This document shows positions 22,511-39,161 of a DNA stretch of 39,161 nucleotides, piece after piece; the stretch's first letter is position 1; each line of letters starts with the position of its first letter. Origin of the DNA: an uncultured Rhodospirillaceae bacterium (GTDB lineage Bacteria; Pseudomonadota; Alphaproteobacteria; CAYNIS01); NCBI GenBank assembly GCA_964397055.1, contig CAYNIS010000001.1, forward strand, positions 1 to 39,161, given 5' to 3'. Position numbers and translations under genes: made by a program. Below the pieces are notes generated by a model. That model ran no database searches, was not told the DNA's origin, and saw nothing but the letters and a program-made list of their open reading frames with translations.

Positions 22511-22522
22511 CCTCCGAACGGT

Positions 22523-22771: not shown

Positions 22772-22786
22772 GGTCGAAAGTGTCCT

Positions 22787-23027: not shown

Positions 23028-23708
23028 ATGGCCGACAGCAACCGCTACTACATGCTGATTGCGAGCCTGCCGGCGCTGACCCTGTCGTTCGAAGCGCCGC
23101 GCCCGCCGATCAGCCGGCCCCGGCTGGAGGCACGGTTGAACCAGCTGGCGCCGGCGGACCTCGCCGTCATCCAGGAGATGGAGACGTTCCTGCGCTGGGC
23201 CCGCCAGACCGGCGAAAGCAGCGATGCGGCGGTCAACGCCCACTATGCGGCGCTTCTGGCCTCCAGCGCCAACGCCTTCCTGACCGAGATCGTATCCTAT
23301 CGCATGGACATGCGGACCCTGATCGCGGCGTTGCGCCGGCGGGCGCGCGGGCTTGGGCCGCCTGGCCCTGCCGATGGCTGGCGATCCCAATGGGTGCGGG
23401 CGATCCGCCAGAACTGGACCCAGCCGGATTTTCGATTGGCCCCGGTGTTTCCGATCCTGCCCGAGCTCGCCCGCCTGTTGCGCGAGGGCGACAGCGTCGG
23501 CCTCGACCGCGCGATCCTGCGAGCGGTCTGGGATCGTCTTTCGCAGATGGAGCCGCGCGACCCGTTCTCGTTCGAGGCGATCCTGATCTACTTGTGCAAA
23601 TGGGACGTGGTCGACCGCTCGGCCGCCTATGACGGAACGGCGGCGTCCCTTCGCTTCACCCAGCTCGTCGAGGAGGCATTGGAAGGCCATGTCGCACACG
23701 TCGCCTGA
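23028..23708 (+). CDS. DUF2764-like protein (V-ATPase-operon-associated, presumed subunit C substitute)
   Basis: 226 aa from the ATG at 23028. The N-terminus NRYYMLIASLPALTL matches the YYYL(V/I)ASLP(E/A)L opening that I associate with DUF2764 proteins, which sit next to atpA in Bacteroidetes-type V-ATPase operons. The position immediately upstream of atpA fits. Confidence 0.55.
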   Translation: MADSNRYYMLIASLPALTLSFEAPRPPISRPRLEARLNQLAPADLAVIQEMETFLRWARQTGESSDAAVNAHYAALLASSANAFLTEIVSYRMDMRTLIAALRRRARGLGPPGPADGWRSQWVRAIRQNWTQPDFRLAPVFPILPELARLLREGDSVGLDRAILRAVWDRLSQMEPRDPFSFEAILIYLCKWDVVDRSAAYDGTAASLRFTQLVEEALEGHVAHVA

Positions 23709-25578: not shown

Positions 25579-26475
25579 CTATTGCGCCGGTTCGGCCAGG
25601 CGCGCCTGCACTTCCGCGCATTCCGGCTGCGACAGCGAGCGGATGCACGGCCGGTCGATGGTGAAGAAGCCGCGACCCTGCGCATTGCGCGTGAAGGAGA
25701 TGCGGCTGACATAGGTCAACAGCGGCTCCGGCGAGGTCGTCAGTTCGATCCAGCGCTGGACCGGCATGTAGCGGGCCGCGATCTCGGTCCGGCTGCGGTC
25801 GGCGACACTCTGGTCGGAGAGATAGAAGACCAGGGTCGCGGCAAAGGCGATGATGCCGGCGGCGGCGAGGCCGATGCCGGCGTTCAGGATGGCCTCTCCC
25901 TTGTCGCGATAGGGGGCCATCGCTGCCCCGGCCACGCACTGGTGCTGGCGCTCGCCGGAGGCCGGCTGCCCCTCCGGCAGGACCACGCTGGAATAGGCCC
26001 CGCCGAAACTGCGCTTCACTTCCATGACCCGGCGCGTCATCGGCACCACGCAGACCACCTGCGGGTCGGCGTCGATCGCCTCCATCGCCGACTTGATGTA
26101 CGACTTGCCGGGGCCGCCCTCGTGCACCTCGAACAGCCAGCCGCCGTCGAACTTGCGGACATGCCACCAGCAGACGTCGTAGTTGGCGAAGCGCTGGTCG
26201 ATGAAGGCTTTGGCGAAGCTGACGGCGTCCTTGCGCTTGGTCGTGCCGTCGAGGAAGTCGATGACCGCGCGGTAGGGCTTCTCCTCGATCCCGCTGACCT
26301 GGTGGATGGCCGCCGCCTGGCGCATCTCGGCCGATGCGAGGACGTCGTGGCCGGTTTCCCCGGCGTCGGCCGCTTCGTCCGCGGTCTCGGCCGCGGCGGT
26401 CTCGAGCGGCACGGGCGGCTTGAAGCCACCTGTCTCGCGGTCGTCTCTGGGGCGTTTCCGCCGGCGCCAGAACAT
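25579..26475 (-). CDS. Bitopic inner-membrane protein (~195-aa cytoplasmic, 1 TM, ~80-aa periplasmic); possible GspL/BfpC-type assembly component
   Basis: 298 aa with a single hydrophobic helix, AILNAGIGLAAAGIIAFAATLVFYL, at about residues 196-219. It is the last gene of the secretin transcription unit. The functional analogy rests on topology and context only. Confidence 0.55.
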   Translation of the reverse strand: MFWRRRKRPRDDRETGGFKPPVPLETAAAETADEAADAGETGHDVLASAEMRQAAAIHQVSGIEEKPYRAVIDFLDGTTKRKDAVSFAKAFIDQRFANYDVCWWHVRKFDGGWLFEVHEGGPGKSYIKSAMEAIDADPQVVCVVPMTRRVMEVKRSFGGAYSSVVLPEGQPASGERQHQCVAGAAMAPYRDKGEAILNAGIGLAAAGIIAFAATLVFYLSDQSVADRSRTEIAARYMPVQRWIELTTSPEPLLTYVSRISFTRNAQGRGFFTIDRPCIRSLSQPECAEVQARLAEPAQ

Positions 26476-26556
26476 GGGCCGTCAGCTTTCCGATCCAACG
26501 GGGACGTCTGATAGGCGATCGTCCGGCATCAGGGCGAAAAGTTCGGTTAACGGCAC

Positions 26557-28278
26557 TTATTCTTCGGTGGTGTCGTCGGACCCGTCGAGGATCCCGGACA
26601 GGACCCGGCCGAAATAGCGGGCGCCCGGTGCCGCCGGTGGCGCTCCGGCCGCCGCCGCCGGACCCGGCTCGACACCAGGACCCCGATCCGACGGGCGGGT
26701 CGGCTGGGTCGGGTTCACCGGTGCCGGGTCCGCCCGCTCCGCGCGCGCGGCCTGCTCTGCGTTGGCCGCGTCGAGCTTGGCGATGCGGACGTCGTCATCC
26801 TCGTCGTCGATCAGCTCATAGACGGTGACCATCGGGCGCAGGATGATGAACAGGGAGGTGCGGCCGACCGACCGGTCCGACGCCCCGATCCGCCACAGTC
26901 CGAACGGCGCATTGCGTCCTTCGGAAATGGTGGTGGTCGACAGCCCGCCCAGGATCACGGTCTCGCCGGCCGGCACGCGGACCAGGTCGGTCAGGTTCTG
27001 GGTCAACGTCGACGGCGGTTCGCCGACGATTTCCGGCAGCGGGTTCTCGCTCTCCAGGGATTCGTTGTCGAGTTCAAGGTCGATGGTGACCAGTTCCGTA
27101 TCGGCATCGAAGCGCGGCGTCAGCGTGATCCTCAGGCTGACCGTGACCTCGTCGAACTCCGTGACGATATCGGTTCCCGAATCCTGACCGCGATCGACGA
27201 TGGTCTCGCGCACGATCGGGAAGGTGCGGCCGGATTCGATCGTCGCCTGTTGCCCGGAGAGCGTGCGCACCTCGATGTTCTGTTCGATGTCGGTCCGGCC
27301 GAACGACGACAGGAACTGGATCGCCCCGGTGACGTTGAGAGCGGCTTCGGTTCCGAAAAGGCCGACCCCGGACCGCAGCAGGTTGGTCAGGATCTGCTGG
27401 CTGTCGAGCTGGGTCAGCGTGCCGTCGCCGGCGCCGGTGATCTGGTTGCCGGTCTGGATGGTCGCGGCGAACTGGTCGAAATCGAACCCGCGCTGGTCGT
27501 TGTCGTCGAGGGTGACGGAGACGAGGGCCACCTGGATCGCGATTTCCGAGAAGTTCTCGCCCACCCGGCGCAGGTAGGGTCGGATGATCTCCTCGTTCTG
27601 GGGTGGGCGCGCGGAATAGTAGACGACCGAGCCGTTGACGCTTTCGACCAGGTCCTCGGCACCGAAACCGGCCAGTTCCTCCGCCACCTCTTTAAGTATT
27701 TCCGGGTTCTGCGGCAGGGTTACGAGGTATCGTTCCTGGGCCGACAGGAACAAGGCATCGGCGTCCCACCAGTAGGCTAGGCCCATCGTCTTGTTGAGCT
27801 TGGTCATGAGACCGCCGAGCGTGCCTTCGAACCGGCGGAACGGCACGGTCTGGTTGCGCAGGGCGAGGTCGTCTTCGGAATCGCCGGACAGGGTGTTGTT
27901 GCGGTCGAAGTGGAAGGCGACCGGAATGCCCTGGTCCTCGAGGATCAGCGTCAATTCGTCGAGGTCGATGCGTGCCGCGGGCAGGCGCAGGATGATTTCC
28001 TGCTCGGCGACGTCCGGCGGCAGTTCGCCGCGCACCCTCTGCACCACGAACAGGTCGGCCGGCAGCGGCACCCGTCGAAGGCCCGCCCGGGTCGAAAACT
28101 GTGCCGCGGTCTGCTCAAGGACGATCTCGGCACGCGGCGGCTCCTGGTCCGGCAGGGGCTCCGCACAGCCCGCCGCGACCAGACACAAGGCGATGCTAGT
28201 TCTGCGTGCAGCCGCCCATGCGCTGGAGAACCCCGCTGAAACGCAAGGCTGCCGCTTCGGGCACGATGAAGGGCTCAT
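26557..28278 (-). CDS. Secretin-family outer-membrane channel, probable lipoprotein
   Basis: The C-terminal region has secretin character (ALNVTGAIQFLSSFGRTDIEQNIEVRTLSGQQATIESG ... VPAGETVILGGLSTTT ... RTSLFIILRPMV). The N-terminus RRTSIALCLVAAGC|AEP is lipobox-like. The start is uncertain: the ATG at 28278 overlaps the upstream gene by 83 nt and the ATG at 28365 overlaps it by 170 nt. Confidence 0.7.
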   Translation of the reverse strand: MSPSSCPKRQPCVSAGFSSAWAAARRTSIALCLVAAGCAEPLPDQEPPRAEIVLEQTAAQFSTRAGLRRVPLPADLFVVQRVRGELPPDVAEQEIILRLPAARIDLDELTLILEDQGIPVAFHFDRNNTLSGDSEDDLALRNQTVPFRRFEGTLGGLMTKLNKTMGLAYWWDADALFLSAQERYLVTLPQNPEILKEVAEELAGFGAEDLVESVNGSVVYYSARPPQNEEIIRPYLRRVGENFSEIAIQVALVSVTLDDNDQRGFDFDQFAATIQTGNQITGAGDGTLTQLDSQQILTNLLRSGVGLFGTEAALNVTGAIQFLSSFGRTDIEQNIEVRTLSGQQATIESGRTFPIVRETIVDRGQDSGTDIVTEFDEVTVSLRITLTPRFDADTELVTIDLELDNESLESENPLPEIVGEPPSTLTQNLTDLVRVPAGETVILGGLSTTTISEGRNAPFGLWRIGASDRSVGRTSLFIILRPMVTVYELIDDEDDDVRIAKLDAANAEQAARAERADPAPVNPTQPTRPSDRGPGVEPGPAAAAGAPPAAPGARYFGRVLSGILDGSDDTTEE

Positions 28279-28750
28279 CAACCTCGGGATCGTAGAAGAG
28301 AACCTTGCCGTCGCCGACGCATCCCCGAAGAGTGGACAGAGAAAGCCGTTCCTCAAGACGCTCACGGCTCAACGCCTCCGCTCGGCTCAAGAGCTGCCCG
28401 CCTTCGGTTTCCAGACGACGAATGAGGTCCTGCTTAGCAGCGTCGACATCCCTGGACCAGGGCTTTTCCCCGGCAAGCCGACGGCGTTCGTCTATGGCGC
28501 GGCGGTCGATTGCTTGACGGACACGGGTCTCCATTTGGCGAATGCGGTTTTCGAGGCCGAGCAGTGCTTCGAGAACGCGGGCGGCGCGCTCCTCCTCTAT
28601 CTGGTCCTCGCTCGGGCCCTGGCTGATCGGCAGGGAAGCCCCCCGGACCGCATGGCCGGCGTCGGTCGTCGCCAGCGCCTGCGAGCCGATGACCGCGGCC
28701 ACGACCAGCGCCGCGACCGCCGCGAGCGACGTCGTTCCCGGCCGCGTCAT
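28196..28750 (-). CDS. Exported coiled-coil/Cys-pair protein, paralog B
   Basis: 184 aa from the ATG at 28750, with an ATGA overlap with the upstream paralog. It has a signal or anchor (SLAAVAALVVAAVIGSQALA), a charged helix, then RGCVGDGKVLF...MGGCTQN. Confidence 0.6.
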   Translation of the reverse strand: MTRPGTTSLAAVAALVVAAVIGSQALATTDAGHAVRGASLPISQGPSEDQIEEERAARVLEALLGLENRIRQMETRVRQAIDRRAIDERRRLAGEKPWSRDVDAAKQDLIRRLETEGGQLLSRAEALSRERLEERLSLSTLRGCVGDGKVLFYDPEVDEPFIVPEAAALRFSGVLQRMGGCTQN

Positions 28751-29394
28751 TGTCCGGTCCCGATGTAGCGGTCCACCGCATCGGCCGCCGCAGGCCGGGC
28801 AGCCGTGGCCTCGGCTTCGGCCGTCCGCCGCCTGCCGTTGCCGTCCTCGCAGCGGCCCAGGCGGCGCACGTCCTCGTTGACGAGGGCGGCTTCGCGGCCG
28901 TCGACGAAGAACACCTCCGACAGGTCGTTGGCGGCTTCCACCGTGAACATCGCCTGACCGTCGACACAGCCCCGGAACACGCCGACCGCGAGCCGCTCTG
29001 CCAGCGCCTCCCGGCGCCGGACCTCGACCGGGGTCAGAACCTCGCCCGTGGCAGAGGACATGCGCTCGATGATCTCGCTCGCGGTCTGGTCGATGTCCCG
29101 CATCCACGGGCGTTCGGAGCGCACGCGCTCGGCTTCCAGGCGCGCCCGTTCGTCGATCGCCGCGCGCAACGTCTCTTCCAGGCGACGCAGCCGTGCATCC
29201 AACTGAATGATCCGCACCAGAACCGGATCGTCCTTCGGGTCGAACGGGCGCGGATCGAACTGGGCATGGGCCGGCAGGCCGCCGAGGAAGGCCGCGGTCA
29301 TGGCGCCGAGAACGAACGCAACGATGGCGATCTTCGCCGTGCCCGAAGCATCGCGGATTCGGTGCGTTGGCAAGAAGGCATCGATCTTGAGCAT
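28747..29394 (-). CDS. Exported coiled-coil/Cys-pair protein, paralog A
   Basis: 215 aa with a signal or anchor (AKIAIVAFVLGAMTAAFLGGLPAHA|Q). By hand, about 40 % of ~83 ungapped positions are identical to paralog B, including EKPW/ERPW, RDxD and RGCV. Confidence 0.6.
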   Translation of the reverse strand: MLKIDAFLPTHRIRDASGTAKIAIVAFVLGAMTAAFLGGLPAHAQFDPRPFDPKDDPVLVRIIQLDARLRRLEETLRAAIDERARLEAERVRSERPWMRDIDQTASEIIERMSSATGEVLTPVEVRRREALAERLAVGVFRGCVDGQAMFTVEAANDLSEVFFVDGREAALVNEDVRRLGRCEDGNGRRRTAEAEATAARPAAADAVDRYIGTGQ

Positions 29395-29645
29395 GGCGAG
29401 CCGGGCCCTTCCGCCCCTGAATTGCGATCGTTGTGAGGTCGGTTCGTGCGACCGGCGTCGGTCGGTCGGATAGGCCCCGCCGGCCGCCGGTGAATTCGGT
29501 TTCCGGCGAGGATCCTACACATCAACCGTTAACGAGAACGGGCATAGACTGTGCCTCGTCTGATTGGGCCGCGGCGATGCTTCAGGTGCACGCCAGCCCG
29601 GGCCGTTGCCGCTGGCGGCGGCCTTGCGAGAAGAGGTCCATCGGC

Positions 29646-30821
29646 ATGCCTGCCTTCATGGTCAGACTGCGCGCGGCCGGCCGGGTGAAAGAGCTCGAGC
29701 TCAACGCCCAGAACCCCGAGGTTGCCAAGCGGATGGCGCGCCGCTTCGGCTCCGTCATCTCGGTGAACAAGAAGGAACGCAAGCACACCGGCGGCGGCCT
29801 TCACCAGTCCGAGCGCTACATCTTCCTGTGGCGGGTCTCGACCATGCTCGCCTCCAAGGTCGGGACGACCGAAGCCCTGCGGCTCATTCGCGACAGTTTC
29901 TCGGGCCGGATCGGTGCCTGTGCCGCGGGTCTCCTGGAGCGTGTCGAGGCCGGGGCCGACCTGCCGACGGCGATTTCCGACGACACCCGCAACTTCCCGG
30001 GTGCGATCGGCATGATCATCAAGGTGGGCGCCCAGACCGGCCAGACCTGGCGGGCCCTGCAGCGCGCGGCGGAGTTCGAGCACAAGCTGCAGGAAGCCAA
30101 GAAGGGGTCGTCGAAGGGTATCGCGACCGCCGTCGCTTCCTTCGTTCTGGCCGCCTGCCTGATGATCTTCTCCTCCTTCTATATCGGGCCGAAGGTCGCT
30201 TCCATGCAGCTTGTCCAGGCCGGCGGCGGAACCCAGGTCCTCGCCATCTTCGACCAGGTGGCGTTCTGGGGCGGCACGGTGATGACCTTGTGCGTGGTCA
30301 TGCTGTTCGGCCTGATGTGGCTCGCCACCGTCGGGCGCCGGCTGATGCCGCTGGCGGCGGACGCGATCATCCTGCGCATCCCGTTCTACAGCGAACTGGT
30401 GCTGGCCCAGGACAACTACGTGAACATGCACCGCATGTCGCTTCTGGTCCGTTCCGGCGTGCGCATGGAAGACGCGCTGAAGACATCCTTCGAATCCTGC
30501 CGTCCCGGGCTGATCAAGGAGGATTTCCGGCGCGCACTCGATGCCATCCGGCTCGGCCGCAAATGGGCGGCGTCCATGCATCTCCTGCACCCGACCGATC
30601 GTGCCGCCCTGATGCTGGCGTCGGACCGCGATCAGATCGCCCAGAACCTCGACAACATCGGCTCCCAGTACGAGAGCATCTATATCGAGCGGGTGGCGAT
30701 GTTCACGCCGATCATGACGGTCGCGGCAGCGTTGTCGATCACGGTCGCGGGCCTGGTCCTGTTCGGCCAGGCGGTGCTGCCGATGCTCGAAGCTTCCGCC
30801 GGTATCCTTGCCCAGAATTGA
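29646..30821 (+). CDS. GspF/PilC-family inner-membrane platform protein
   Basis: 391 aa from the ATG at 29646. Two T2SSF-like repeats (EALRLIRDSFSGRIGACAAGLLERVEAGADLPTAI and MEDALKTSFESCRPGLIKEDFRRALDAIRLGRKWAASM) are each followed by TM segments. The N-terminus MPAFMVRLRAAGRVKELELNAQNPEVAKRMARRFG is PilC-like. Confidence 0.8.
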   Translation: MPAFMVRLRAAGRVKELELNAQNPEVAKRMARRFGSVISVNKKERKHTGGGLHQSERYIFLWRVSTMLASKVGTTEALRLIRDSFSGRIGACAAGLLERVEAGADLPTAISDDTRNFPGAIGMIIKVGAQTGQTWRALQRAAEFEHKLQEAKKGSSKGIATAVASFVLAACLMIFSSFYIGPKVASMQLVQAGGGTQVLAIFDQVAFWGGTVMTLCVVMLFGLMWLATVGRRLMPLAADAIILRIPFYSELVLAQDNYVNMHRMSLLVRSGVRMEDALKTSFESCRPGLIKEDFRRALDAIRLGRKWAASMHLLHPTDRAALMLASDRDQIAQNLDNIGSQYESIYIERVAMFTPIMTVAAALSITVAGLVLFGQAVLPMLEASAGILAQN

Positions 30822-30830
30822 GATGCCGGT

Positions 30831-31080
30831 TAACCAAAAATAAAGCAAACTAAAAAATCTGTAAACTCTGCGTCACAGGCAGCATACACCCTGCTGCATG
30901 CGCGTTTTGCCGTGAAATGTTTGTTACAGCTCGTCATTCCCAGACATTCAATGCCATGCAGATTTCATTCAGTCAGCTGAACCAGGGGCGTTCCCTGGGC
31001 CGATAAAGCACTCATTAAATGTTCGGTCATAAAAGATTCACCGGTTCTTGACAGAGTTTGTCCCCATAATACTGCCGACA
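30831..31080. promoter_or_regulatory. AT-rich non-coding island (about 45 % GC) inside the filament cluster
   Basis: I counted 112 G+C in the 250 nt from 30831 to 31080, while the flanking coding DNA is visibly far more GC-rich. No credible ORF is present. The island lies between the platform gene and the downstream plus-strand unit. Confidence 0.5.
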
Positions 31081-31162
31081 GACAAAGAAGCGGCGGGCAC
31101 GGCAGGCGGCCGACCCCGCACCTGCGCCGTTCGCTTTCGGGGTCCTGGGGCACCCGGTGTCC

Positions 31163-31205
31163 GGGACCGATGCATGGGACCGACGCATGGGACCGACGCA
31201 TGGGA
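31163..31205. repeat. 13-bp tandem repeat, 3.3 copies
   Basis: gggaccgatgcat (31163-31175), gggaccgacgcat (31176-31188), gggaccgacgcat (31189-31201), then ggga. The unit length is not a multiple of 3. The last partial copy supplies the GGGAG upstream of the GTG at 31217. Confidence 0.9.
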
Positions 31206-31216
31206 GCGGTGGCAAC

Positions 31217-31606
31217 GTGGCCTTGCTGGACGTATCGACGATGACCCGCGGCCAGGTGATGGCGATCGGGGGGACCCTGTCCGCGATCGGCGTCGTCCTT
31301 CTGATCGTTGCGATCGTGCTCGCGGTGTCGACCGTCCAGCGGCGGGCCGACGCGCGGGAGATCGCGAGGCTCGAGCTGCGCGCCTGCATGGGCCGCCTGA
31401 CCCAGGACCTGGGCTTTCAGACGCAGCCGCGCCAGGAGACGTCGATCATTGCCCGGAAGGAAGGCTACGGCGACACGGCCCTGCGCCTGGGCGAGGTGTC
31501 GTCGGCGGCGCTGCTCTGCCCGGGGTGGGTGATGACCAGCTTCTGCATGGGCACCGGTTGCAGCTATTCGGACGGGGCCGAACTGGTGCTGGAACAGGTC
31601 AAGTAG
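31217..31606 (+). CDS. Small Cys-containing membrane-anchored protein
   Basis: Good G/C-ending codon usage from 31241 onward. TM segment AIGGTLSAIGVVLLIVAIVLAV, with four Cys in the exported part (RACMG, LLCPG, FCMGTGCS). The start is either the GTG at 31217 (GGGAG 10 nt upstream) or the ATG at 31241. Confidence 0.55.
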   Translation: MALLDVSTMTRGQVMAIGGTLSAIGVVLLIVAIVLAVSTVQRRADAREIARLELRACMGRLTQDLGFQTQPRQETSIIARKEGYGDTALRLGEVSSAALLCPGWVMTSFCMGTGCSYSDGAELVLEQVK

Positions 31607-31674
31607 CGAATTAACCGCGTTTCAACCGGCCTTGATCGAGGCTGGATGCCGAAATCGGCCAACGGAGGTGGATC

Positions 31675-32646
31675 ATGGCCAACCTTATCGTCACGGTGAT
31701 TGCGATCGCCCTTGTCGCCGTCGCATCGTTGATGGGTGCCTATTACGGCGGTGCCGCCTTCCTCCAGGGGGCAGAGCGGGCCAACGCGGCCAGCCTGGTC
31801 GCCCAGGGTCAGCAGATGGCCGGCGCCTGGATCGTCGGGCGCAACCAGTATGTCGGGGCGCCCTGGGCGAACACCGCCAACCTGCGCATGCTGACCACGT
31901 TCACGCTGCTGTCGGACCTGCCGGCACCGCCGGCCGATGCCTCGCGCCGGCCGTTCTACGGTGTCTTCCGGTCGGGCAACCAGCGCCGGTACGCGGTCGC
32001 CGACCTCGGCCCCAACGCCTATGGGGTGTGCCTGCGCGTGGAGACCCAGAATTCCGACTCGCCCCTCTACGGCATGATCGAGAACTTCAACGGCGGCACG
32101 TTCGACTTCACCCAGAACGGGGAGCCGATCGCGGCACTGGAGTTCCTGGAGCAGGACGTCTTCCTCTACGAACGCGGCTACCACATGGACCGGACGGCGG
32201 GCTGGACCGGTGGCACCGGCTTCGGCGGCGGCACCTTCGCCCTCAACTCCCAGGCACCGACACCGGCGCTCTACTCTCCGGGGGCGGACTGCCAGCCGTC
32301 GAAGATCGACATCTCCGGCGGCACCCCGGCCTACGGGGTGGCCCGCTGCGACATCACCCCGCATGACCCGTTCGACGGCCGCTACGGCTGCTTCGCCCTT
32401 TTCTCCGGCAGGCCCGATGCCTACGCGAACGGCTACACGGTCAGCACCGACACCGAACCGATGCTGTTCATCAATGCCGGTGACAACATGACCTTCAACA
32501 CCGGTGCCGCCGCCGCCGGCCAGTTCGTCGACACTGCCGCCAACTGCGGGGCTGCCGTCGATGCGGCCGACGCCAACACCATCTGTGCCGAGGTTCCCGA
32601 CGGAGCCGAGGACATTAGCTTCATCTTCTACTATCAGCTGCAGTAG
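31675..32646 (+). CDS. Pilin-like protein without class III leader (candidate major filament subunit)
   Basis: GGAGG sits 7 nt upstream of the ATG, and an in-frame stop lies 14 codons upstream. The N-terminus MANLIVTVIAIALVAVASLMGAYYGG is pilin-alpha1-like. A C-terminal Cys pair 14 residues apart (NCGAAVDAADANTIC) resembles a pilin D-region. Confidence 0.55.
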   Translation: MANLIVTVIAIALVAVASLMGAYYGGAAFLQGAERANAASLVAQGQQMAGAWIVGRNQYVGAPWANTANLRMLTTFTLLSDLPAPPADASRRPFYGVFRSGNQRRYAVADLGPNAYGVCLRVETQNSDSPLYGMIENFNGGTFDFTQNGEPIAALEFLEQDVFLYERGYHMDRTAGWTGGTGFGGGTFALNSQAPTPALYSPGADCQPSKIDISGGTPAYGVARCDITPHDPFDGRYGCFALFSGRPDAYANGYTVSTDTEPMLFINAGDNMTFNTGAAAAGQFVDTAANCGAAVDAADANTICAEVPDGAEDISFIFYYQLQ

Positions 32647-32698
32647 GCGCGATCGGCGGGGTCGGTTCCACCGGCCCCGGTCGCCCGGGTCGGTTCCG

Positions 32699-32782
32699 AT
32701 GATCCGCTTCACCTTTAGCTTCGCCGCGACGCTGCTGGTCGCGATCGCCGCCTTCCTCGGCGCGCTCGCCGGTGTCGGGTGA
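32699..32782 (+). CDS. Possible 27-aa hydrophobic micropeptide
   Basis: MIRFTFSFAATLLVAIAAFLGALAGVG with G/C-ending codons but only a weak SD. This call is speculative. Confidence 0.25.
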   Translation: MIRFTFSFAATLLVAIAAFLGALAGVG

Positions 32783-32830
32783 CGCGTCGATGCAGGGTGA
32801 CGCGTCGATGCAGGGTGATGGGCCGATGCG
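32777..32830. repeat. 18-bp in-frame tandem repeat (2 perfect copies plus 1 degenerate)
   Basis: gggtgacgcgtcgatgca at 32777-32794 and 32795-32812, then gggtgatgggccgatgcg at 32813-32830. Each copy carries an in-frame ATG (GDASMQ GDASMQ GDGPMR). Confidence 0.85.
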
Positions 32831-33038
32831 CTGGGCGATCCGGGCGCTGGACTGGGCGGCGGCGGCTGGCTGCTTGGTCTGGGCCGCGAGGGTCTGGGAT
32901 CACGGGCTCGGCCCGGGCTCGGGCTGGGTGTGGCTTGCGGCAGGGCTGATCGGCTGTGTCCTCGCCGCGCTTGACGTGTCGCGGAGGGCCGAACGGGCGG
33001 TGTTCCGCGCCCTCCTGGTCAAGCGCCGCCGGACATAG
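32826..33038 (+). CDS. Small two-TM membrane protein
   Basis: MRWAIRALDWAAAAGCLVWAARVW...WVWLAAGLIGCVLAAL...RRAERAVFRALLVKRRRT. The start is ambiguous: GTG at 32772, or ATG at 32790, 32808 or 32826, all created by the 18-bp repeat. Confidence 0.45.
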   Translation: MRWAIRALDWAAAAGCLVWAARVWDHGLGPGSGWVWLAAGLIGCVLAALDVSRRAERAVFRALLVKRRRT

Positions 33039-33070
33039 AACCGCCGGACGTTTAGCCGCCGGACATTGAG
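33026..33070. repeat. 15-bp tandem repeat, 3 copies, spanning the upstream stop codon
   Basis: ccgccggacatagaa (33026-33040), ccgccggacgtttag (33041-33055) and ccgccggacattgag (33056-33070). The repeat ends 12 nt before the ATG at 33083. Confidence 0.85.
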
Positions 33071-33082
33071 GACGAGTTCCCG

Positions 33083-34960
33083 ATGATCGCTGCCGTCATC
33101 TTCGCCGTCGTCGCCATCGGGCTCGCCAGTGCCGCCATGTACACGGTGCTGCAGGTCAACGAGGCCCAGCAGGCGACCGTCTACGGCGCGCGCAACTTCC
33201 AGAACATCGAACTCGCCGCGGCGATGCTGCGCGCCAACCTGCGCAGTGTCAGGTTCGACGGCAATCCCTACCCGCCGGCGGGGGCCCTCGACCCCACCTA
33301 CAACTACACGACGCTGCCGCCCTGGCTCGGCGCGCCGCGCTCCTCCATCGGTGTTCCCTTCCTCTACTGCCCCGTCGGTATCGCCAGCGCCGGGGCGTTT
33401 ACGCTCGGCGGCGACGAAAGTGCGGACACCGTCACCCTGGCCGACGGCTCCACCACCTATGACGTCGCGACCGTCACCGACGGCCGGACCAACGGGCAGG
33501 CGTACGTGACCCAGGCCGACGGCAGCTCGATCCCCGCGCTCTGGGTCGCCGGCGCGCCGGACGTCGTCGCGTTCCTGGTGGCGCCGACCTCGACCTCCAC
33601 CGACGTGCTGAGCTGCGACACGATCGACTGGGCGGCCGACCGCGGCCACTGGGTGCCGCACGTGGCCGATACCGGCGGCATCGTGCGCGCGATCCTGCGG
33701 GACGAGGCGGTCAGCCAGCGCTTCACGTCCGGGGTCGCGACCCCGGTGCTGTTCGCCGCCCCGACCGCGACCGGCGACGGCAGCGGGCGCGACGACACCA
33801 ACCGCATGACGCTCGCCGGTGCGATGAGCCTGTGGGCGGCCCTGCGCCCGCCCCTGATGCGCATCAGCCTGGGTGACGGCAGCTACACCGACGTCGATCT
33901 CGATCTCGCCCACCTGGACGACTCGACGGATGCCGGCTTCGATGACATCCACGACGGCAACGCCACCGGATCGAAGCTGGTCCTCGAAGGGCAGGGGGCC
34001 GCCACCACCCGGTTCACCGGCGGCATGACGGCCGTCGCCGTCCCGGCCGACCTGCATCTGGAGGATGTCGGCTTCACCGCGGCCATGCCGATCCGGGTCA
34101 TGCCCGGGCGCCGCCTCTATGCCAAGGACGTCGATATCGGGCGTCTGGAGGTCGACGGCGGCGAGGCCCGCCTCGCCGGGACCATCGATCTCGATGCTGG
34201 CTCTGTCACCGGTGCCATCAGCGTACTGAACGGCGGCCGGGTGCATTTGGTCACGCCGGAAAGCGGGGTGAACTCGACGGTCACCATCGACAATCCGGCC
34301 GGCGACATCATCCAGGTCGGTTCCGACGGCGAGATGACCCTGCGGGACACGGATATCGAGATCAGGATCACGGGCTTCGCTTTATCGCTGGCCCAGGTCT
34401 CCGGCCGTCTGACGGCGATCGACAGCACCATCACCGCACCGTTGAGCGGGCCCGTCGTCCATGGCCTGCACATGTTGAACGGCAGTCATGTCCGCCTGAC
34501 CAACGTCACCATCGGATCGGTCACCAGCCTGCCCAACTTCGCGGTCGTGGATGACGGGGCGCTCAGCATCTCAGGCACCGGCAGCACGGTCTACGGCACG
34601 ACCTGCTGGTTCACCACCCTGGGTGCCAATCTGTCGCCGACGCTGTTCGCCGCCTCCGAGATCGGGCCGCAACCGGTGTCATCGCAACCCGTGGCACCGG
34701 TACCGGGCGGCAGCGGGCTCACCCCACCAGCCCTGCCGCTGGTCGACAGACTAGACGTGGACAACGGCTTTTTGGGCGGCGACCCGGAAGTCGACGGCGA
34801 TGACAGTGCCAACCCCTACGACAACGTCCATGCGCCGGCCTATCGGACCGCTCTCCAGACCTATGTCGAAGACAGCATTGCCGCAGGCATCGCCGGCGAG
34901 GCCGCCTATCACGCCGTGCGCTTCACGAACCGTTCAGACTGGACGTGCCTTAATCTCTAG
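33083..34960 (+). CDS. Large pilin-like-anchored protein with a C-terminal right-handed beta-helix-like domain (candidate tip adhesin/enzyme)
   Basis: The N-terminus MIAAVIFAVVAIGLASAAMYTVLQ has no room for a leader (an in-frame stop lies 10 codons upstream). The mid-region FAAPTATGDGSGRDDTNRMTLAGAMSLWAAL...ISLGDGSY resembles the N-cap of pectate-lyase-fold proteins. Short strand-turn repeats follow (VTIDNPAGDIIQVGSDGEMTLRDTDIEIRITG...). Confidence 0.6.
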   Translation: MIAAVIFAVVAIGLASAAMYTVLQVNEAQQATVYGARNFQNIELAAAMLRANLRSVRFDGNPYPPAGALDPTYNYTTLPPWLGAPRSSIGVPFLYCPVGIASAGAFTLGGDESADTVTLADGSTTYDVATVTDGRTNGQAYVTQADGSSIPALWVAGAPDVVAFLVAPTSTSTDVLSCDTIDWAADRGHWVPHVADTGGIVRAILRDEAVSQRFTSGVATPVLFAAPTATGDGSGRDDTNRMTLAGAMSLWAALRPPLMRISLGDGSYTDVDLDLAHLDDSTDAGFDDIHDGNATGSKLVLEGQGAATTRFTGGMTAVAVPADLHLEDVGFTAAMPIRVMPGRRLYAKDVDIGRLEVDGGEARLAGTIDLDAGSVTGAISVLNGGRVHLVTPESGVNSTVTIDNPAGDIIQVGSDGEMTLRDTDIEIRITGFALSLAQVSGRLTAIDSTITAPLSGPVVHGLHMLNGSHVRLTNVTIGSVTSLPNFAVVDDGALSISGTGSTVYGTTCWFTTLGANLSPTLFAASEIGPQPVSSQPVAPVPGGSGLTPPALPLVDRLDVDNGFLGGDPEVDGDDSANPYDNVHAPAYRTALQTYVEDSIAAGIAGEAAYHAVRFTNRSDWTCLNL

Positions 34961-34994
34961 CGATTTGGGGTGCGGTTTCCTGGAGTGACGAGGC

Positions 34995-36848
34995 ATGCCC
35001 TCGCAGTTGATCGAAGAAATGAGCCTGGAGGAGGTCTCCCGCGAGATCGACAGCTTCGCCTCTCTCGAGGATCTGTCGAAGCGGCTCTCGGGCGAGCCGA
35101 CGGCGGAGGAGATCGCCCAGGTCGAGGAGGCGGTGAAGCCCAAGGTCGGCCGCATCGGCGACTATCTCGTCTCCCAGGGGCTGGTCGAGCGAGAGGCGGT
35201 CGAGGCCGCGGTGCGCGAATCCAAGGTTTCCGGCGAGCGCATCGGCAACATCCTGGTGCGCAACGGCTTCCTGCGCCACGCCGACCTGATCGACGCGATC
35301 CTCACCATCGCCCCCGACAACATCGCGTTCGAGAAGAACTTCACCGCGCGCATCCCGCGCGACCTCCTGGAACAGTATTCGATCGTCGTCATCGCCGACA
35401 CCAATGACGAGGTCTTCATCGCCACCCTGTCGCCGCAGGAAGCGGTCCACGCGATCGCCAAGCACTACTATCCGAACAAGGAGGTGCGCTTCGTCGGGCT
35501 GTCGCCGGCCGACCTCGCGAGCTTCATGGAATCGATCGGCCGGGAGGGCGAGGACCAGGACGCCGACGATGCCGAGGATGACGCCCTGGTCCTCGACATG
35601 ATCCTGAAACAGGCGCTCCTGATCGGCGCCTCCGACATCCACATCGAACCGCGCTACCGCTCCTACACGGTGTTCTATCGCCACCTCGGCATCCGCAAGA
35701 TCGCCCATGAGGGCTCGCTCGAGCAGTTCGCGATCATTGCCGCCCAGGTCAAGGACCGGGCGCGCATGGACCAGGTCGAAACCCGCATCCCCCAGGACGG
35801 CAGCTTTTCGATGGAATTCCGCAACCGCATCGTCGACATGCGTGTCGCGACCGTGCCGACCGTCAACGGCGAGATCGTCGTCATCCGCATGCTCGACCCC
35901 GACAAGGGCATGAAGACCCTGGTCGAACTCGGCATTTCGGAGGTTGAGGCGTGGCGCGGGGCGACCAACTATCCCTTCGGGCTGTGCCTGATCTGCGGCG
36001 CGACCGGTTCCGGCAAGACCACGACGCTGAATGCCACGGTCCGCGAGATGGACCGCTTCGGCAAGTCGATCCGCACGGTCGAGGACCCGGTCGAATACCG
36101 CATCCCCTATGTCGGCCAGGTGTCGATCAACCCCCTGGTCGGGCTCGACTTCACCATGGCGCTGCGCGCGTTCATGCGCGCCGACCCCGACGTCATCATC
36201 CTGGGGGAGGTGCGTGACACCAACACGGCCGCCCTGATGATGCGTGCCGCGGAAACCGGCCACCTGGTGCTGGCGACCCTGCACACCGGCTCGGTCCGGG
36301 GTGCCATCGGGCGGCTGCGCGGCCTGGAGGTGGCGGAAAGCGACATCCGCCCGCTTCTGCGCGGGGTCCTGGTTCAGCGTCTGGTGCGCACGGTCTGCAC
36401 CGCCTGCCAGGGCCAGGGCTGCCAGGCCTGCATGGACACCGGCTATGCCGGCCGGACCATCGTTTCCGAATGCGTCATGCTGAAGAACGAGCTGGAGGTC
36501 GACCGCGCCATGGCCGGCGAGCGCTGGTGGCCATCCATGGTGACCGACGCCCTGATCAAGATCCGCAAGGGGATCACGACGACCGAGGAGATCTACCGCG
36601 TCTTCCAGGCGGAGATCGAAAACCAGGACGAGGACCTGGACGGCATCGAGGAACTGATCGCCGCGGTCCAGGGCTTTAAGGAAGAGAAGCGCCAGAAGCT
36701 GATGTCCTCCCAGCGCCAGATCAAGCAGGAGATCGCGCGCCAGGAACAGGTGCGCGACGAACAGCGCCGCCTGATCCAGGAGGACCGCTCGCGCATGGTC
36801 AATTCCGACGTGACCATGTACACCGCCGTCCTCGCCAAGAACGGCTAG
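34995..36848 (+). CDS. GspE/PilB-family type IV filament assembly ATPase with an MshEN-like N-domain and a C-terminal charged extension
   Basis: Walker A CGATGSGKTTTLNA, Asp box/Walker B DPDVIILGEVRD, His box GHLVLATLHT, and the Cys cluster CTACQGQGCQAC. The N-terminal segment is RIGDYLVSQGLVEREAVEAAV...RIGNILVRNGFLRHADLIDAI. Confidence 0.9.
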   Translation: MPSQLIEEMSLEEVSREIDSFASLEDLSKRLSGEPTAEEIAQVEEAVKPKVGRIGDYLVSQGLVEREAVEAAVRESKVSGERIGNILVRNGFLRHADLIDAILTIAPDNIAFEKNFTARIPRDLLEQYSIVVIADTNDEVFIATLSPQEAVHAIAKHYYPNKEVRFVGLSPADLASFMESIGREGEDQDADDAEDDALVLDMILKQALLIGASDIHIEPRYRSYTVFYRHLGIRKIAHEGSLEQFAIIAAQVKDRARMDQVETRIPQDGSFSMEFRNRIVDMRVATVPTVNGEIVVIRMLDPDKGMKTLVELGISEVEAWRGATNYPFGLCLICGATGSGKTTTLNATVREMDRFGKSIRTVEDPVEYRIPYVGQVSINPLVGLDFTMALRAFMRADPDVIILGEVRDTNTAALMMRAAETGHLVLATLHTGSVRGAIGRLRGLEVAESDIRPLLRGVLVQRLVRTVCTACQGQGCQACMDTGYAGRTIVSECVMLKNELEVDRAMAGERWWPSMVTDALIKIRKGITTTEEIYRVFQAEIENQDEDLDGIEELIAAVQGFKEEKRQKLMSSQRQIKQEIARQEQVRDEQRRLIQEDRSRMVNSDVTMYTAVLAKNG

Positions 36849-36871
36849 CCTGAGCTGCGGGGAGGCGAGCC

Positions 36872-37462
36872 GTGAGCCAGCTAGTCTTCGCGATGCTCGC
36901 GTTCTGCTTCATGGCCGTGTTGATGGCCGGCGGCGCCTATTACGTCGACCCGCACGCATTGGCGGTCATCGATCTCAAGAACTCGGCAGTGGCGGGCTTC
37001 ACCCAGCTCACCACCGGCTACCGCATGCACGTCATCAACCATCGCCGTCCGATCGATGTCGATGACCTCGCGACCCCCGACCTGATCGAATGGCACCCGC
37101 AGATCCGTTCCTTGACCCCGCTGCCCCGGCGCCCCGGGGATGGCGGGCTCGACTGGTCCTTCGGGCGTCCCGACCTGCGCCCGATCGGCAGCCCGGATGG
37201 CGTCGCCGACGGCGACTACTTCTGCCTTTCCGGGATGGTCGATGAGCACGAGTACCGCGCCCTGGCGCTGGCGGCGATCGGCCACGACCACGACACCGAC
37301 GGTATCGCGGACACCCCGCCCCTGCTGCCGCCCGGCATGACGGTGCTGTCGGACCTGCAGTGCGGCATCTATCAGGATGTCGATCCCGGCGGCGTCGACT
37401 TGACCGGGGCCTGGCCCAAGCAGGTCTATCTGACCGTCTGGGTGGTCAAGAACGGGCCCTGA
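36872..37462 (+). CDS. Pilin-like protein without class III leader (candidate minor subunit)
   Basis: GTG start 6 nt after GGGGAGG, with an in-frame TGA 7 codons upstream. The N-terminus MSQLVFAMLAFCFMAVLMAGGAYYVD shares the M-(A/S)-(N/Q)-L ... AV ... GAYY pattern with the protein at 31675. Confidence 0.55.
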   Translation: MSQLVFAMLAFCFMAVLMAGGAYYVDPHALAVIDLKNSAVAGFTQLTTGYRMHVINHRRPIDVDDLATPDLIEWHPQIRSLTPLPRRPGDGGLDWSFGRPDLRPIGSPDGVADGDYFCLSGMVDEHEYRALALAAIGHDHDTDGIADTPPLLPPGMTVLSDLQCGIYQDVDPGGVDLTGAWPKQVYLTVWVVKNGP

Positions 37463-37475
37463 CGGGTCCCGTCAG
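37459..37475. repeat. 17-bp perfect palindrome containing both convergent stop codons
   Basis: ctgacggg-t-cccgtcag. The TGA at 37460-37462 ends the plus gene, and the TCA at 37472-37474 is the stop of the minus pcm gene. Confidence 0.6.
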
Positions 37476-38233
37476 ATCCGCTGGCCGCCCTGCATGGGCG
37501 TGAAGCTGACCGGCATCAGCGACTGTTCGACAAGGCGCCCGTCGGCCTGTTTTCGAATCAGCGTCAGCACCTGCGCCCCGGGCCGGCCAAGCGGCAGGAC
37601 GAGGCGCCCGCCCGGCTTCAGCTGTCGTTCGAGCGGCGGCGGCACATGGTCGAGCGCCTCCTTGATCAGGATGACGTCGAACGGCCCGGCCTCCGGCCAG
37701 CCGAAATAGCCGTCGCCCTCGCGCAACGCGACCTCGTCATAGCCGAGGTCGGGCAGGAGCCGGCTGGCCACGTCGTGGAGTTCGCCGACCACCTCCATCG
37801 AGTGCACATCGGCCCCGAGTTCCGCCAGGATCGCCGCGTGATAGCCGGTATCGGTGCCCGTCTCGAACACCTTGTCGCCGGGCTCGACCTCCGCCACCTC
37901 GGTCATCAGGGCGGCCAGGAACGGCATCGTCAGGCTCTGGCCGAAGCCGAGCGGCAGCGGCCGGTTCAAATGCGCGAAGGGCTCCAACTGGGGCGGGACG
38001 AATCGCTCACGCGGAACCGTCCGGAACGCCTCCAGCACCCGCGGGCTGATCCGCCGGACGCCGGTGACGCCGGCCGTATCGCTGGCGTCCGCCTGGATTT
38101 CCCGGATCATGCGCTCGACCTCTGGCCGCCCGGGATCGCCGTGCCCCGGGGCCGCCGCGAGACCGACAGCCGCGGCCACGCCGATCGCGAGGGCCGCAAT
38201 CCTTGCGGCGATGCTCCGTTTCGCGCGCGCCAT
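37472..38233 (-). CDS. pcm: Protein-L-isoaspartate O-methyltransferase-like protein with an N-terminal signal peptide
   Basis: 253 aa from the ATG at 38233. Signal-like MARAKRSIAARIAALAIGVAAAVGLAAAPG, then PRERFVP, the SAM motif VFETGTDTGYHAAILAEL, and LKPGGRLVLPLG. Confidence 0.8.
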   Translation of the reverse strand: MARAKRSIAARIAALAIGVAAAVGLAAAPGHGDPGRPEVERMIREIQADASDTAGVTGVRRISPRVLEAFRTVPRERFVPPQLEPFAHLNRPLPLGFGQSLTMPFLAALMTEVAEVEPGDKVFETGTDTGYHAAILAELGADVHSMEVVGELHDVASRLLPDLGYDEVALREGDGYFGWPEAGPFDVILIKEALDHVPPPLERQLKPGGRLVLPLGRPGAQVLTLIRKQADGRLVEQSLMPVSFTPMQGGQRI

Positions 38234-38244
38234 GGCGACCCGCC

Positions 38245-39161
38245 CTAATCCTTGCCGAGAACCCGATCCAGGATAGCCTCGATGCGGGCGAGGTAGAAGC
38301 TGTGGTCGAAAAGACCGGTGAGTTCGCCGGCGTCGAGATGCGCCGTGATCACCGGATCCCGTGCCAGGTGGGCGAGGAAACGGGGGCGCCCCTCGATCTG
38401 TGGTGCGGCACCGGCGTCGATCTCCTGCCACACGGTCATCGCGTGCGACTGCACCAGCCGATACGCCTCTTCCCGCGCAACACCGGCCTGGGTCAGGGCG
38501 AGGAGCACCCGCTGCGACGCCACCAGGCCGCCCAGCCGGTCGAGGTTGCGGCGCATCTGGTCCGGGTAGACCAGAAGCTTGTCGACGACGTCCGCCAGGC
38601 GATTGAGCGCGAAGTCGAGGGCGATCGTGGCATCCGGTCCGATCAGCCGCTCCACCGAGGAGTGGGAGATGTCGCGCTCGTGCCACAGGGTGACGTTTTC
38701 CATCGCCGGCACCACCGCGGCCCGGACCAGGCGGGCGAGCCCCGTCAGGTTCTCGGTCAGGACCGGGTTGCGCTTGTGCGGCATCGCCGACGAGCCCTTC
38801 TGGCCCGGGCTGAAATACTCCTCCGCCTCGCGGACCTCGCTGCGCTGCAGGTGGCGGATCTCGGTCGCCAGGTTCTCGACAGAGCTCGCGACGACGCCGA
38901 GGACGGCGAAGAACTGGGCATGGCGATCGCGCGGGATGACCTGGGTCGACACCGGTTCCGCGGTGAGGCCCATCGCGCGGGCGACATGGGCCTCCACGGC
39001 CGGGTCGATGGTCGCGAAGGTGCCGACCGCGCCGGAGATGGCGCAGGTCGCGACCTCCTCCCGGGCTGCTTCCAGGCGGGCGCGATTGCGTTGGAAGGCG
39101 GCATGATGGCCGGCGAGCTTGAGCCCGAACGTGGTCGGCTCGGCATGGATGCCGTGGCTGC
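38245..39161 (-). CDS. purB: Adenylosuccinate lyase, 3' part (5' end off-window)
   Basis: The fumarate-lyase signature GSSAMPHKRNP is present. The frame stays open to the window edge (...HAEPTTFGLKLAGHHAAFQRNRARLEAAREEVATCAISGAVGTFATIDP...). Confidence 0.9.
   Translation of the reverse strand, partial: SHGIHAEPTTFGLKLAGHHAAFQRNRARLEAAREEVATCAISGAVGTFATIDPAVEAHVARAMGLTAEPVSTQVIPRDRHAQFFAVLGVVASSVENLATEIRHLQRSEVREAEEYFSPGQKGSSAMPHKRNPVLTENLTGLARLVRAAVVPAMENVTLWHERDISHSSVERLIGPDATIALDFALNRLADVVDKLLVYPDQMRRNLDRLGGLVASQRVLLALTQAGVAREEAYRLVQSHAMTVWQEIDAGAAPQIEGRPRFLAHLARDPVITAHLDAGELTGLFDHSFYLARIEAILDRVLGKD

Follow-up and report, generated by a model that had tools for sequence, protein, structure and literature searches.

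The window analysed here is a complete NCBI contig of 39,161 bp (GC ~67%, more exactly 67.5%) from an uncultured Rhodospirillaceae bacterium. Between positions 25579 and 37462 it carries a cluster of 11 genes, called G1 to G11 below, that encode an ATPase, a platform protein and a secretin of type IV filament (T4F) kind, together with pilin-like proteins that are translated without a leader and a set of accessory proteins. On balance, the locus is probably a complete member of a distinct and previously unclassified branch of the T4F superfamily. Six classes of T4F are recognised in bacteria, namely type IVa pili (T4aP), type IVb pili (T4bP), the system for type II secretion (T2SS), Com, MSHA and Tad (PMC10191384), and the present system is a candidate for a new one. 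A wider proposal is that it forms a seventh bacterial class whose subunits are born mature (without class III leader, Glu5 or N-methylation, and with no prepilin peptidase involved), which was spread on megaplasmids across the Proteobacteria and became fixed in the chromosomes of uncultured Rhodospirillales; for this we see the arguments as evenly balanced. A literature search for leaderless or peptidase-independent pilins, and for such a system on megaplasmids, found no description, although its coverage was incomplete and an earlier description is possible.

Pilins are defined by a class III signal, the leader of which is removed before assembly (PMC10191384). Reviews hold that prepilins need cleavage by a dedicated peptidase before they can polymerise, and that the charged leader sets their topology in the membrane (PMC10191384; PMC6668835; 10.64898/2026.04.22.720090). 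If the proposal made here is true, then the assembly of type IV filaments does not intrinsically require leader processing, and the class has been missed by every census that uses pilin or peptidase profiles.

The ATPase, platform and secretin

Genes were called from third-position GC (GC3) and translation of the open reading frames (ORFs). All 11 are full-length and intact, with GC3 of 0.82-0.91, and they lie at the positions and in the three units given by a preliminary description of this DNA. The proteins were searched against Pfam and NCBIfam profiles, using curated equivalog cut-offs, and against PDB sequences. The trio that the preliminary description had recognised is confirmed, and all three genes are intact. 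G10 (34995-36848, plus strand) matches Pfam T2SSE with E 1.1e-86, G5 (29646-30821, plus) matches T2SSF with E 1e-18 over two stretches or domains, and G2 (26557-28278, minus) matches Secretin (PF00263) with E 7.9e-16.

None of the three attains the curated cut-off of a named family (GspE, PilB, GspF, GspD, MshL or PilQ). The ATPase scores 295 bits against PilB (cut-off 676), 291 against GspE (cut-off 630) and 35 against the TadA-family model (cut-off 373). The platform scores 58 bits against GspF (cut-off 424), and the secretin 61 bits against MshL (cut-off 250.2), 36 against GspD (cut-off 351) and 29 against PilQ (cut-off 284). The earlier view that the locus fits no known architecture is therefore upheld, since the trio falls under the equivalog cut-off of every named class, and no assignment to a defined class with a complete component set was obtained.

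Against PDB sequences, G10 scores 243 bits with GspE (5e-71) and ~225 bits with PilB/PilF (1.5e-65), compared to 91 bits with PilT and 81 with BfpD. On the basis of these hidden Markov model (HMM) scores, G10 would be placed on the GspE/PilB/MshE branch, away from the type IVb and Tad branches, and is predicted to be a hexameric-type extension ATPase. The sequence shows the Walker A motif (GATGSGKTT), the His box and the tetracysteine motif, and the catalytic motifs are intact. Its N-terminus contains a cyclic di-GMP (c-di-GMP) motif, with a score of 45.7 bits for NCBIfam NF053729, which exceeds the cut-off of 38, and a match to Pfam MshEN with E 3.3e-5. This MshEN motif occurs in tandem, as RIGDYLVSQGLV from residue 53 (53-76) and RIGNILVRNGFL from residue 82 (82-105), the two copies being spaced 29 aa apart.

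G5 (391 aa) belongs to the GspF/PilC family of polytopic platform proteins in the inner membrane. Its ORF is open from 29433, and the start at ~29646 was set by comparison with ~100 homologues. The match to NCBIfam GspF has an E-value of 1.3e-15, with an alignment spanning residues 82-444. For G2 the ORF is open up to 28365, and the probable start is ATG 28278, from which a usable signal peptide ends in LVAAG immediately before Cys (lipobox LVAAGC). A lipobox is present in nearly all G2 homologues of other loci, in agreement with the earlier suggestion of a lipoprotein secretin. G2 is thus probably an outer-membrane secretin and a lipoprotein. Its best NCBIfam match is MshL. PDB GspD is matched with E 2e-6, and the similarity to GspD is confined to the C-terminal Secretin domain and is far under the cut-off.

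Leaderless pilin-like proteins and accessory proteins

Three proteins of the second plus-strand unit have a hydrophobic, pilin-like N-terminus. These are G7 (31675-32646, 323 aa, N-terminus MANLIVTVIAIALVAVASLMGAYYGG), the large G9 (33083-34960, 625 aa) and the small G11 (36872-37462, 196 aa, N-terminus VSQLVFAMLAFCFMAVLMAGGAYY). A class III signal was looked for in all three and none carries one, as had been noted before; the proteins simply start at the hydrophobic segment. G7 has GGAGG placed 7 nt ahead of its start, and there is no in-frame start codon between this and the upstream stop. The same is found for the relatives of these genes. For 36 of 37 pilin-like genes from 12 loci (major-type, large, and the minor type that follows the ATPase) there is no upstream in-frame ATG, GTG or TTG, and a Shine-Dalgarno motif precedes 31 of them. 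The N-terminal consensus is M-x-(N/Q/H/S/T)-(L/V/I)-(I/L/V), followed by about 20 hydrophobic residues, and a charged residue, a Gly at -1 and Glu5 are all absent from these N-termini.

The G7 family comprises 130 relatives, with the almost invariant N-terminus MANLIITVIAIALVAVAxLMGAYYGG; the start MANLI is found in 118 of the 120 relatives listed. In an alignment of 116 sequences M1, N3, L4, T7, I11, L13, A15, M20, A22, Y23, Y24, G25 and G26 are invariant and there are two conserved cysteines, while the overall column identity is 19%. This is the pattern classically seen in pilins, in which the N-terminal helix is frozen, the head varies and there is a disulfide. None of the 116 members matches the Pfam models N_methyl, T2SSG or Pilin. 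This is a blind spot for annotation: a census that requires a match to a pilin profile would miss these loci.

The predicted fold is also pilin-like. AlphaFold2 gives a confident model for the homologue P0113 (pLDDT 86.9, pTM 0.82), with a helix of 57 residues (2-58) followed by a β-sheet head of four strands. For G7 itself, the helix (3-58) and the core strands are predicted confidently, and two large loop insertions have low confidence. When the pilin model was compared to the PDB using Foldseek, the best match was the type IV pilin PilA1 (E 0.18, probability 0.51), which is below significance. A profile search of the PDB with the pilin family gave three non-spurious matches, all of them to GspG and in register on α1-C, with E of 0.6-2. 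The similarity to known pilins is weak but specific.

By hhalign (probability 95.3%, E 2.4e-8), homology between the G11 family (A7) and the G7 family begins at residue 1, and G11 directly follows the ATPase in most loci, the exceptions being the Pseudomonas megaplasmid loci L018 and L019. The G9 family is conserved end to end, has four invariant cysteines and counts among the core components of the system. Its members are 475-973 aa long and were found in L003 and L004 (two copies each), in L015-L018 and in pMPPla107. G9 has no match in Pfam or the PDB, and its description as pilin-like rests on its N-terminal architecture and its position. G7 is probably the major subunit, and G9 may be a tip or initiator subunit analogous to GspK, TcpB or CofB.

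Two further observations concern the subunit genes. One alphaproteobacterial metagenome-assembled genome (MAG; locus-tag prefix PKW15_) has at least seven MANLI-type pilin genes (P0123, P0132, P0158, P0183, P0208, P0217 and P0218), with locus-tag numbers far apart and reported on contigs of differing length, and the Erythrobacter aureus plasmid has five such genes in tandem. The repertoire of subunits is large and variable, with a fixed N-terminus. In the window, a 27-codon ORF between G7 and G8 (32699-32782) encodes MIRFTFSFAATLLVAIAAFLGALAGVG and then a stop. It resembles the bare N-terminal helix of a leaderless pilin, and may have arisen by chance or be what remains of a lost pilin gene.

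The remaining proteins of the cluster are specific to this family. G1 (25579-26475, minus, 298 aa) is a bitopic inner-membrane protein with a cytoplasmic domain of ~140 aa (GG..E.HEGG.G..Y), a transmembrane (TM) segment at ~196-222, a small periplasmic domain and a Pro-rich tail. Homologues adjoin the secretin in 12 loci (E 3e-40 to 5e-8), in every case following it. G1 is unmatched in Pfam and PDB sequences, and has one sub-threshold NCBIfam match. Its topology and position suggest that it docks or aligns the ATPase, in the manner of GspL, BfpC or PilM-PilN.

G3 (28196-28750, minus) and G4 (28747-29394, minus, the first gene of its unit) are exported periplasmic coiled-coil proteins. That they are paralogues, as proposed before, is borne out by 32-36% identity (E ~1e-17). 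The start of G3 overlaps the stop of G4 (ATGA), and each has a signal peptide, a coiled coil and a C-terminal cysteine pair. The family alignment shows an NPF motif, the coiled coil and a Cys-pair domain CxNG..F...C. Elsewhere a single copy is found upstream of every secretin, while the window has two in tandem. By analogy with PilP or GspC, G4 may link the inner-membrane platform to the secretin.

G6 (31157-31606, plus, likely start ATG 31187) is a small bitopic membrane protein with homologues in L001, L002, L003, L008 and L016, where it is the first gene ahead of the pilins. It could be a component of the assembly platform, similar to PilN, PilO or GspM. G8 (32772-33038, plus) is a small membrane protein with two TM segments that sits between pilin genes, and has positional homologues in L003 (133 aa) and L001 (80 aa). 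None of G1, G3, G4, G6, G7, G8, G9 and G11 matches a Pfam or NCBIfam profile above the curated cut-off, and only G4, G6 and G8 have sub-threshold Pfam matches; for the accessory proteins, no relative is detectable by sequence in Pfam or the PDB.

Tandem repeats occur at the 5' ends of genes in this plus-strand unit (31163-31205, 32777-32829 and 33026-33066). The first is a 13-nt array (x3.3) at the start of G6 with one ATG per copy, giving three ATGs in three frames, which from its sequence could act as a slipped-strand switch. The others are an 18-nt repeat (x2.9) inside the 5' end of G8 and a 15-nt repeat (x2.7) across the G8/G9 junction.

Several canonical parts are missing from the cluster. 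Pfam and NCBIfam scans of the window ORFs found no Peptidase_A24, no second secretion ATPase (PilT-type), no PilMNOP and no GspCLM, in accord with the preliminary description. Peptidase_A24 is also absent in 13 related loci among the multi-TM ORFs up to 10 kb from the platform gene (ORFs of at least 120 aa with at least three predicted TM segments), which proved to be ordinary transporters, a rhomboid, BacA and V-ATPase subunits. MSHA loci likewise have no peptidase gene and use one encoded elsewhere (PMC6668835), and therefore a peptidase-free locus is unremarkable by itself. The unusual feature is the leaderless subunit, on which there is nothing for a peptidase to remove.

Related loci and genomic neighbourhood

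The cluster had been described as an orphan. This is not the case, as the gene set is conserved in a family with roughly 100 or more known relatives. A word-based search with the secretin gave two of them, one from a plasmid of Erythrobacter aureus and one from a TARA contig; this search was limited in sensitivity, as revealed by the platform search and by BLAST of the fetched loci. An exact look-up of the window ATPase and secretin in the contig index gave zero matches. The platform search yielded 99 homologue clusters of ~390 aa, of which 97 have 33-57% identity, mostly from alphaproteobacterial and Rhodospirillaceae MAGs. For the genome scan an alignment of 31 platform sequences was used, the 96-sequence set being too divergent. 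An exhaustive HMMER search with G10 ranked ~70 clusters (50% identity) above the generic GspE/PilB level, with full-length scores of 260-534 bits.

At least 11 independent loci of Alpha-, Beta- and Gammaproteobacteria combine the secretin, G1 and the platform. In six of the 11 (L001, L003, L005 and L015-L017) the ATPase and leaderless pilin-like genes adjoin that trio, as they do in two Pseudomonas megaplasmid copies (L018 and L019); in the rest, the unit of pilin and ATPase genes is not linked to it or lies outside the contig. The order G6, pilins, G8, large pilin, ATPase, minor pilin is kept, and BLAST shows that the gene set is retained at 25-72% identity across distant lineages. The genes are thus intact and conserved together, and not the degraded remnants that the preliminary description had named as the outcome that would count against it.

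Two arrangements can be distinguished. In the first (type A), which is chromosomal, occurs in Rhodospirillales and includes the window, the coiled-coil protein, secretin and G1 genes lie on one strand and diverge from the platform gene. The second part of the cluster, as seen in L003, consists of G6, pilin, G8, large pilin(s), ATPase and minor pilin. In L003 rpmB lies between the two units, at the position of the divergent region of the window, and housekeeping genes flank the cluster. L008 shares the V-ATPase neighbourhood of the window, with V-ATPase genes adjoining G1. In L006, L009, L010 and L011 the pilin/ATPase unit is unlinked, which matches the AT-rich break in the window. In the second arrangement (type B) the genes are colinear, in the order coiled-coil protein, secretin, G1, G6, pilins, G8, pilin, ATPase, minor pilin, platform. 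Its hosts are E. aureus, Mesorhizobium sp. SP-1A, Sphingomonas sp. 3-13AW, Pararhizobium sp. BT-229 and a Pseudomonas fluorescens megaplasmid.

The platform gene occurs on 19 PLSDB plasmids, every one of them 240 kb to 1.46 Mb in size and most of them typed as non-mobilizable. The hosts are Variovorax, Bosea, Pseudomonas (pMPPla107), Vibrio, Methylorubrum extorquens AM1 (megaplasmid), Rhizobium, Azospirillum, Thioalkalivibrio, Sphingosinicella and Erythrobacter. In pMPPla107 all genes of the cluster except the ATPase and platform are annotated as 'hypothetical protein', the secretin included. L005 (GCA_036704275.1, 3528-12567 of a 1.16-Mb contig) has its secretin, ATPase, G1 and one pilin each split in two ORFs. 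It is a pseudogenised copy of the plasmid type, adjoining an IS605-family transposase.

Some genes beside the related loci are worth recording. In the alphaproteobacterial MAG loci L004 (identical to L012; 7912-15389) and L014 (32-4528), the ATPase, minor pilin and platform are followed directly by a run of Dot/Icm-like genes, namely DotD, T4SS_TraI (DotC-like), a DotB-like ATPase, IcmT_2 and a TcpQ-domain gene. The order DotD, TraI, DotB, IcmT-like is that of traH-I-J-K in R64. The secretin and G1 are absent within 10 kb in both loci, which may be hybrids with the outer-membrane core of a type IVB secretion system. A RecQ-like helicase gene adjoins the plasmid-type clusters of Mesorhizobium, Pararhizobium, L005 and the Pseudomonas megaplasmids, and a gene for an RNase T-like exonuclease is conserved beside those of L005, Mesorhizobium and Pararhizobium. 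A HerA/DUF87-type ATPase gene lies divergently beside the cluster at 7017-9258 of L001 (the E. aureus plasmid), where it has a partner of ~267 aa, and at 97-1419 of L002 (the TARA contig).

Within the window, the secretin unit and the platform gene are separated by a divergent intergenic region of 251 bp (29395-29645, 67% GC) that presumably contains promoters. A non-coding, AT-rich gap (30822-31156, 47-52% GC) precedes the pilin/ATPase unit and is presumed to be a promoter and regulatory region. Its presence had been reported correctly, and the GC content is 47% over 30822-31100 (67.5% for the window). An Rfam scan of the gap returned no family even at E<=1, and a c-di-GMP or other riboswitch there was ruled out on this ground.

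The neighbours are of housekeeping type, as described before. The gene for V/A-type ATPase subunit A (23629-25551, plus) flanks the G1 side, and on the other side are PCMT, inside the ORF 37472-38686 (of which the portion 37472-38200 was scanned), and beyond it purB (38245-39159). The GC of the cluster (66.8%) equals that of the window, which indicates that the cluster is resident in the lineage and not a recent insertion. The V/A-type ATPase genes form two divergent blocks (17017-25551). The minus-strand block holds K (17017-17460), I (17451-19277), D (19292-19972) and B (19998-21410), the plus-strand block DUF2764 (22935-23708) and A, and a TauD dioxygenase gene (21587-22447) separates the two. 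The usual A-B-D order is interrupted exactly where the filament cluster begins. Upstream of these blocks (10323-11125, 12602-12871 and 15495-16286) there are a DUF433/DUF5615 pair, a Phd/YefM-type antitoxin and an HNH endonuclease gene. All are small genes of accessory or mobile type, and nothing evident connects them to the cluster.

A proposed filament, its alternatives and known systems

On the basis of these observations, we hypothesise that G7, probably as the major component, together with G11 and G9 would form the subunits of a filament. Translated without a leader peptide, they would enter the inner membrane by the N-terminal hydrophobic helix already mature, leaving a prepilin peptidase nothing to do. 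The single ATPase G10, working through the platform G5, would pull the subunits from the membrane and polymerise them, and G9, possibly with G11, would probably prime the filament at its tip. G1, G6 and G8 would make up an inner-membrane assembly scaffold, which the periplasmic coiled-coil proteins G3 and G4 would join to the lipoprotein secretin G2, the exit for the filament. Because G10 keeps an intact MshE-type c-di-GMP receptor module, c-di-GMP most likely turns extension on, and an adhesive surface pilus is the most likely product. Both of these suggestions, activation by c-di-GMP and surface attachment, draw on what is known of MshE, as for MSHA pili. By this analogy, the organism probably makes an adhesive pilus stimulated by c-di-GMP.

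Several points weigh against this proposal. The machine is known here from its genes, from which the formation of a filament is inferred. The N-in/C-out topology of the subunits lacks an explanation when there is no positively charged leader, and the absence of Glu5 takes away the salt bridge to which the docking of subunits is attributed (PMC10191384). Neither Foldseek (E 0.18) nor HMM profiles (E 0.6-2) gave a significant match to the structure of a known pilin, and the comparison of the G9 N-terminus to the pilin family by hhalign was not significant. The window is one 39-kb contig, and a peptidase or PilT could lie elsewhere in the genome. The MshEN motif is degenerate in the plasmid-borne relatives, and therefore control by c-di-GMP is not a trait of the family. 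Adhesion is one among several possible outputs.

If the proposal holds, the system is a natural experiment on the roles of the leader, the N-methyl group and Glu5, and on how pilins are oriented in and extracted from the membrane. Some carriers are cultivable and genetically tractable (Pseudomonas with pMPPla107, M. extorquens AM1, Variovorax, Vibrio), which makes the hypothesis directly testable.

A different function for the same parts would be a T2SS-like machine, in which a short endopilus in the periplasm, built from the leaderless pilin-like proteins, drives folded exoproteins out by way of the secretin. G10 scores almost equally with GspE and PilB (291 and 295 bits) and its top PDB matches are GspE, the platform has GspF as its best NCBIfam match, and the only PDB profile matches of the pilin family are to GspG. 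There is one ATPase, with no retraction ATPase in the window; a secretin is present, as in T2SS; and the large subunit without Glu5 recalls GspK. All these scores are, however, far under the equivalog cut-offs. GspC, GspL and GspM are undetectable, GspO is absent, and so are the pseudopilins GspG to GspK with their N_methyl signals. The secretin is short and lipidated, and matches MshL better than GspD, to which the similarity is limited to the C-terminal Secretin domain. There are no obvious exoprotein genes within the cluster, and the many paralogues of the major pilin (five in tandem in E. aureus, at least seven in one MAG) are typical of exposed pili and not of pseudopili. We consider a T2SS-like role unlikely.

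The plasmid-borne relatives raise another alternative, that the system is a conjugation-associated thin pilus similar to that of IncI plasmids such as R64, which stabilises mating pairs for DNA transfer by a Dot/Icm-like (MPF_I) apparatus, the copy in the window being domesticated or stranded. All 19 carrier plasmids in PLSDB are large (240 kb to 1.46 Mb), and MPF_I is the type assigned to pMPPla107 and to the AM1 megaplasmid. Directly after the platform gene, L004/L012 and L014 have genes for DotD, TraI (DotC-like), DotB-like and IcmT-like proteins in the traH-K order of R64, and helicase (RecQ-like) and exonuclease genes are conserved beside the plasmid-type loci. Against this, type IV secretion, relaxase and integrase genes are absent in the 39-kb window, the cluster has the same composition as its host, and the copies in Rhodospirillales MAGs lie amid housekeeping genes, with rpmB inside. 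Most of the carrier plasmids are typed non-mobilizable, G10 is far from the type IVb ATPase BfpD, and the secretin has no match in the R64 PilN family. We regard a role in conjugation as rather improbable.

The resemblance to type IVb systems (TCP, BFP, CFA/III and IncI R64) nevertheless goes further than location on large plasmids, in some cases beside Dot/Icm-like transfer genes as in R64. These features include a compact cluster of ~11 genes, a lipoprotein secretin, one ATPase with no PilT, a bitopic inner-membrane partner like BfpC or TcpR, and one very large minor subunit like TcpB or CofB. However, type IVb pilins have the longest leaders of all and a dedicated peptidase in the operon, neither of which is found here. 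G10 is distant from BfpD (81 bits, compared to 243 for GspE), the secretin does not match the R64 PilN family, and the type IVb platform models are also unmatched.

It could also be argued that the subunits lose part of the N-terminus after all, whether to signal peptidase I, to a protease not yet recognised or to a remote prepilin peptidase encoded elsewhere, and that this is an ordinary T4F with an odd signal. The data cover one contig of the genome, and MSHA loci also use a peptidase encoded elsewhere (PMC6668835). Residue 2 in the G7 subfamily is Ala, and known leaders end either in this residue or in one other (PMC10191384). In other subfamilies, however, S, F, L, T, I, Q or M occupies position 2. 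A hydrophilic leader is lacking altogether, and both an A-x-A site and the positively charged n-region needed for signal peptidase I are absent. The near-invariance of the first 26 residues in 116 sequences, with far lower identity in the rest, is the pattern of a helix that is retained for its structure and not that of a signal peptide that is thrown away. Hidden processing therefore appears quite improbable. That the cluster is a decaying remnant that no longer works, as the missing canonical partners and the clearly pseudogenised relative L005 might suggest, is scarcely credible, given 11 full-length genes with GC3 of 0.82-0.91, intact catalytic motifs and a complete set kept at 25-72% identity over distant lineages.

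A link to the mitochondrial T2SS-derived system, which is also without GspO, was considered as well and rejected, as its GspG keeps the processing site and Glu+5 (PMC8134430).

Among the other known classes, neither Tad (type IVc) nor T4aP fits the proposed leaderless filament system. The score of the ATPase with the TadA-family model is 35 bits (cut-off 373), the platform is of the two-domain GspF type and there is no Flp or TadV. For T4aP the scores are 295 of the required 676 bits (PilB) and 29 of 284 (PilQ), and there is no PilM, PilN, PilO, PilP or second ATPase in the window.

MSHA shares more with it. Both have a single extension ATPase, which belongs to the GspE/PilB/MshE branch and bears an MshEN motif in tandem at its N-terminus (above the threshold in G10), and in both the locus is free of a peptidase gene (PMC6668835). 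The best curated match of the secretin is MshL, and in the colinear relatives the secretin is encoded upstream of both the ATPase and the platform. The MshL score, however, is 61 bits against a cut-off of 250, there are no detectable homologues of MshI, MshJ, MshK, MshM or MshN, and the accessory proteins G1, G3/G4, G6, G8 and G9 are specific to the present family. MSHA pilins have a class III signal and Glu5 and are served by a peptidase encoded elsewhere, whereas here there is no leader.

With regard to the features that define the superfamily as a whole (PMC6668835; PMC10191384), the extension ATPase (G10) and the platform (G5) are present. The subunits have the hydrophobic α1 and, by prediction, the lollipop fold, but no class III signal, and no prepilin peptidase was found in the window or in the 13 related loci scanned. 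Although it falls short of the full membership of every class compared, the system has in common with the superfamily its ATPase, its platform and its secretin.

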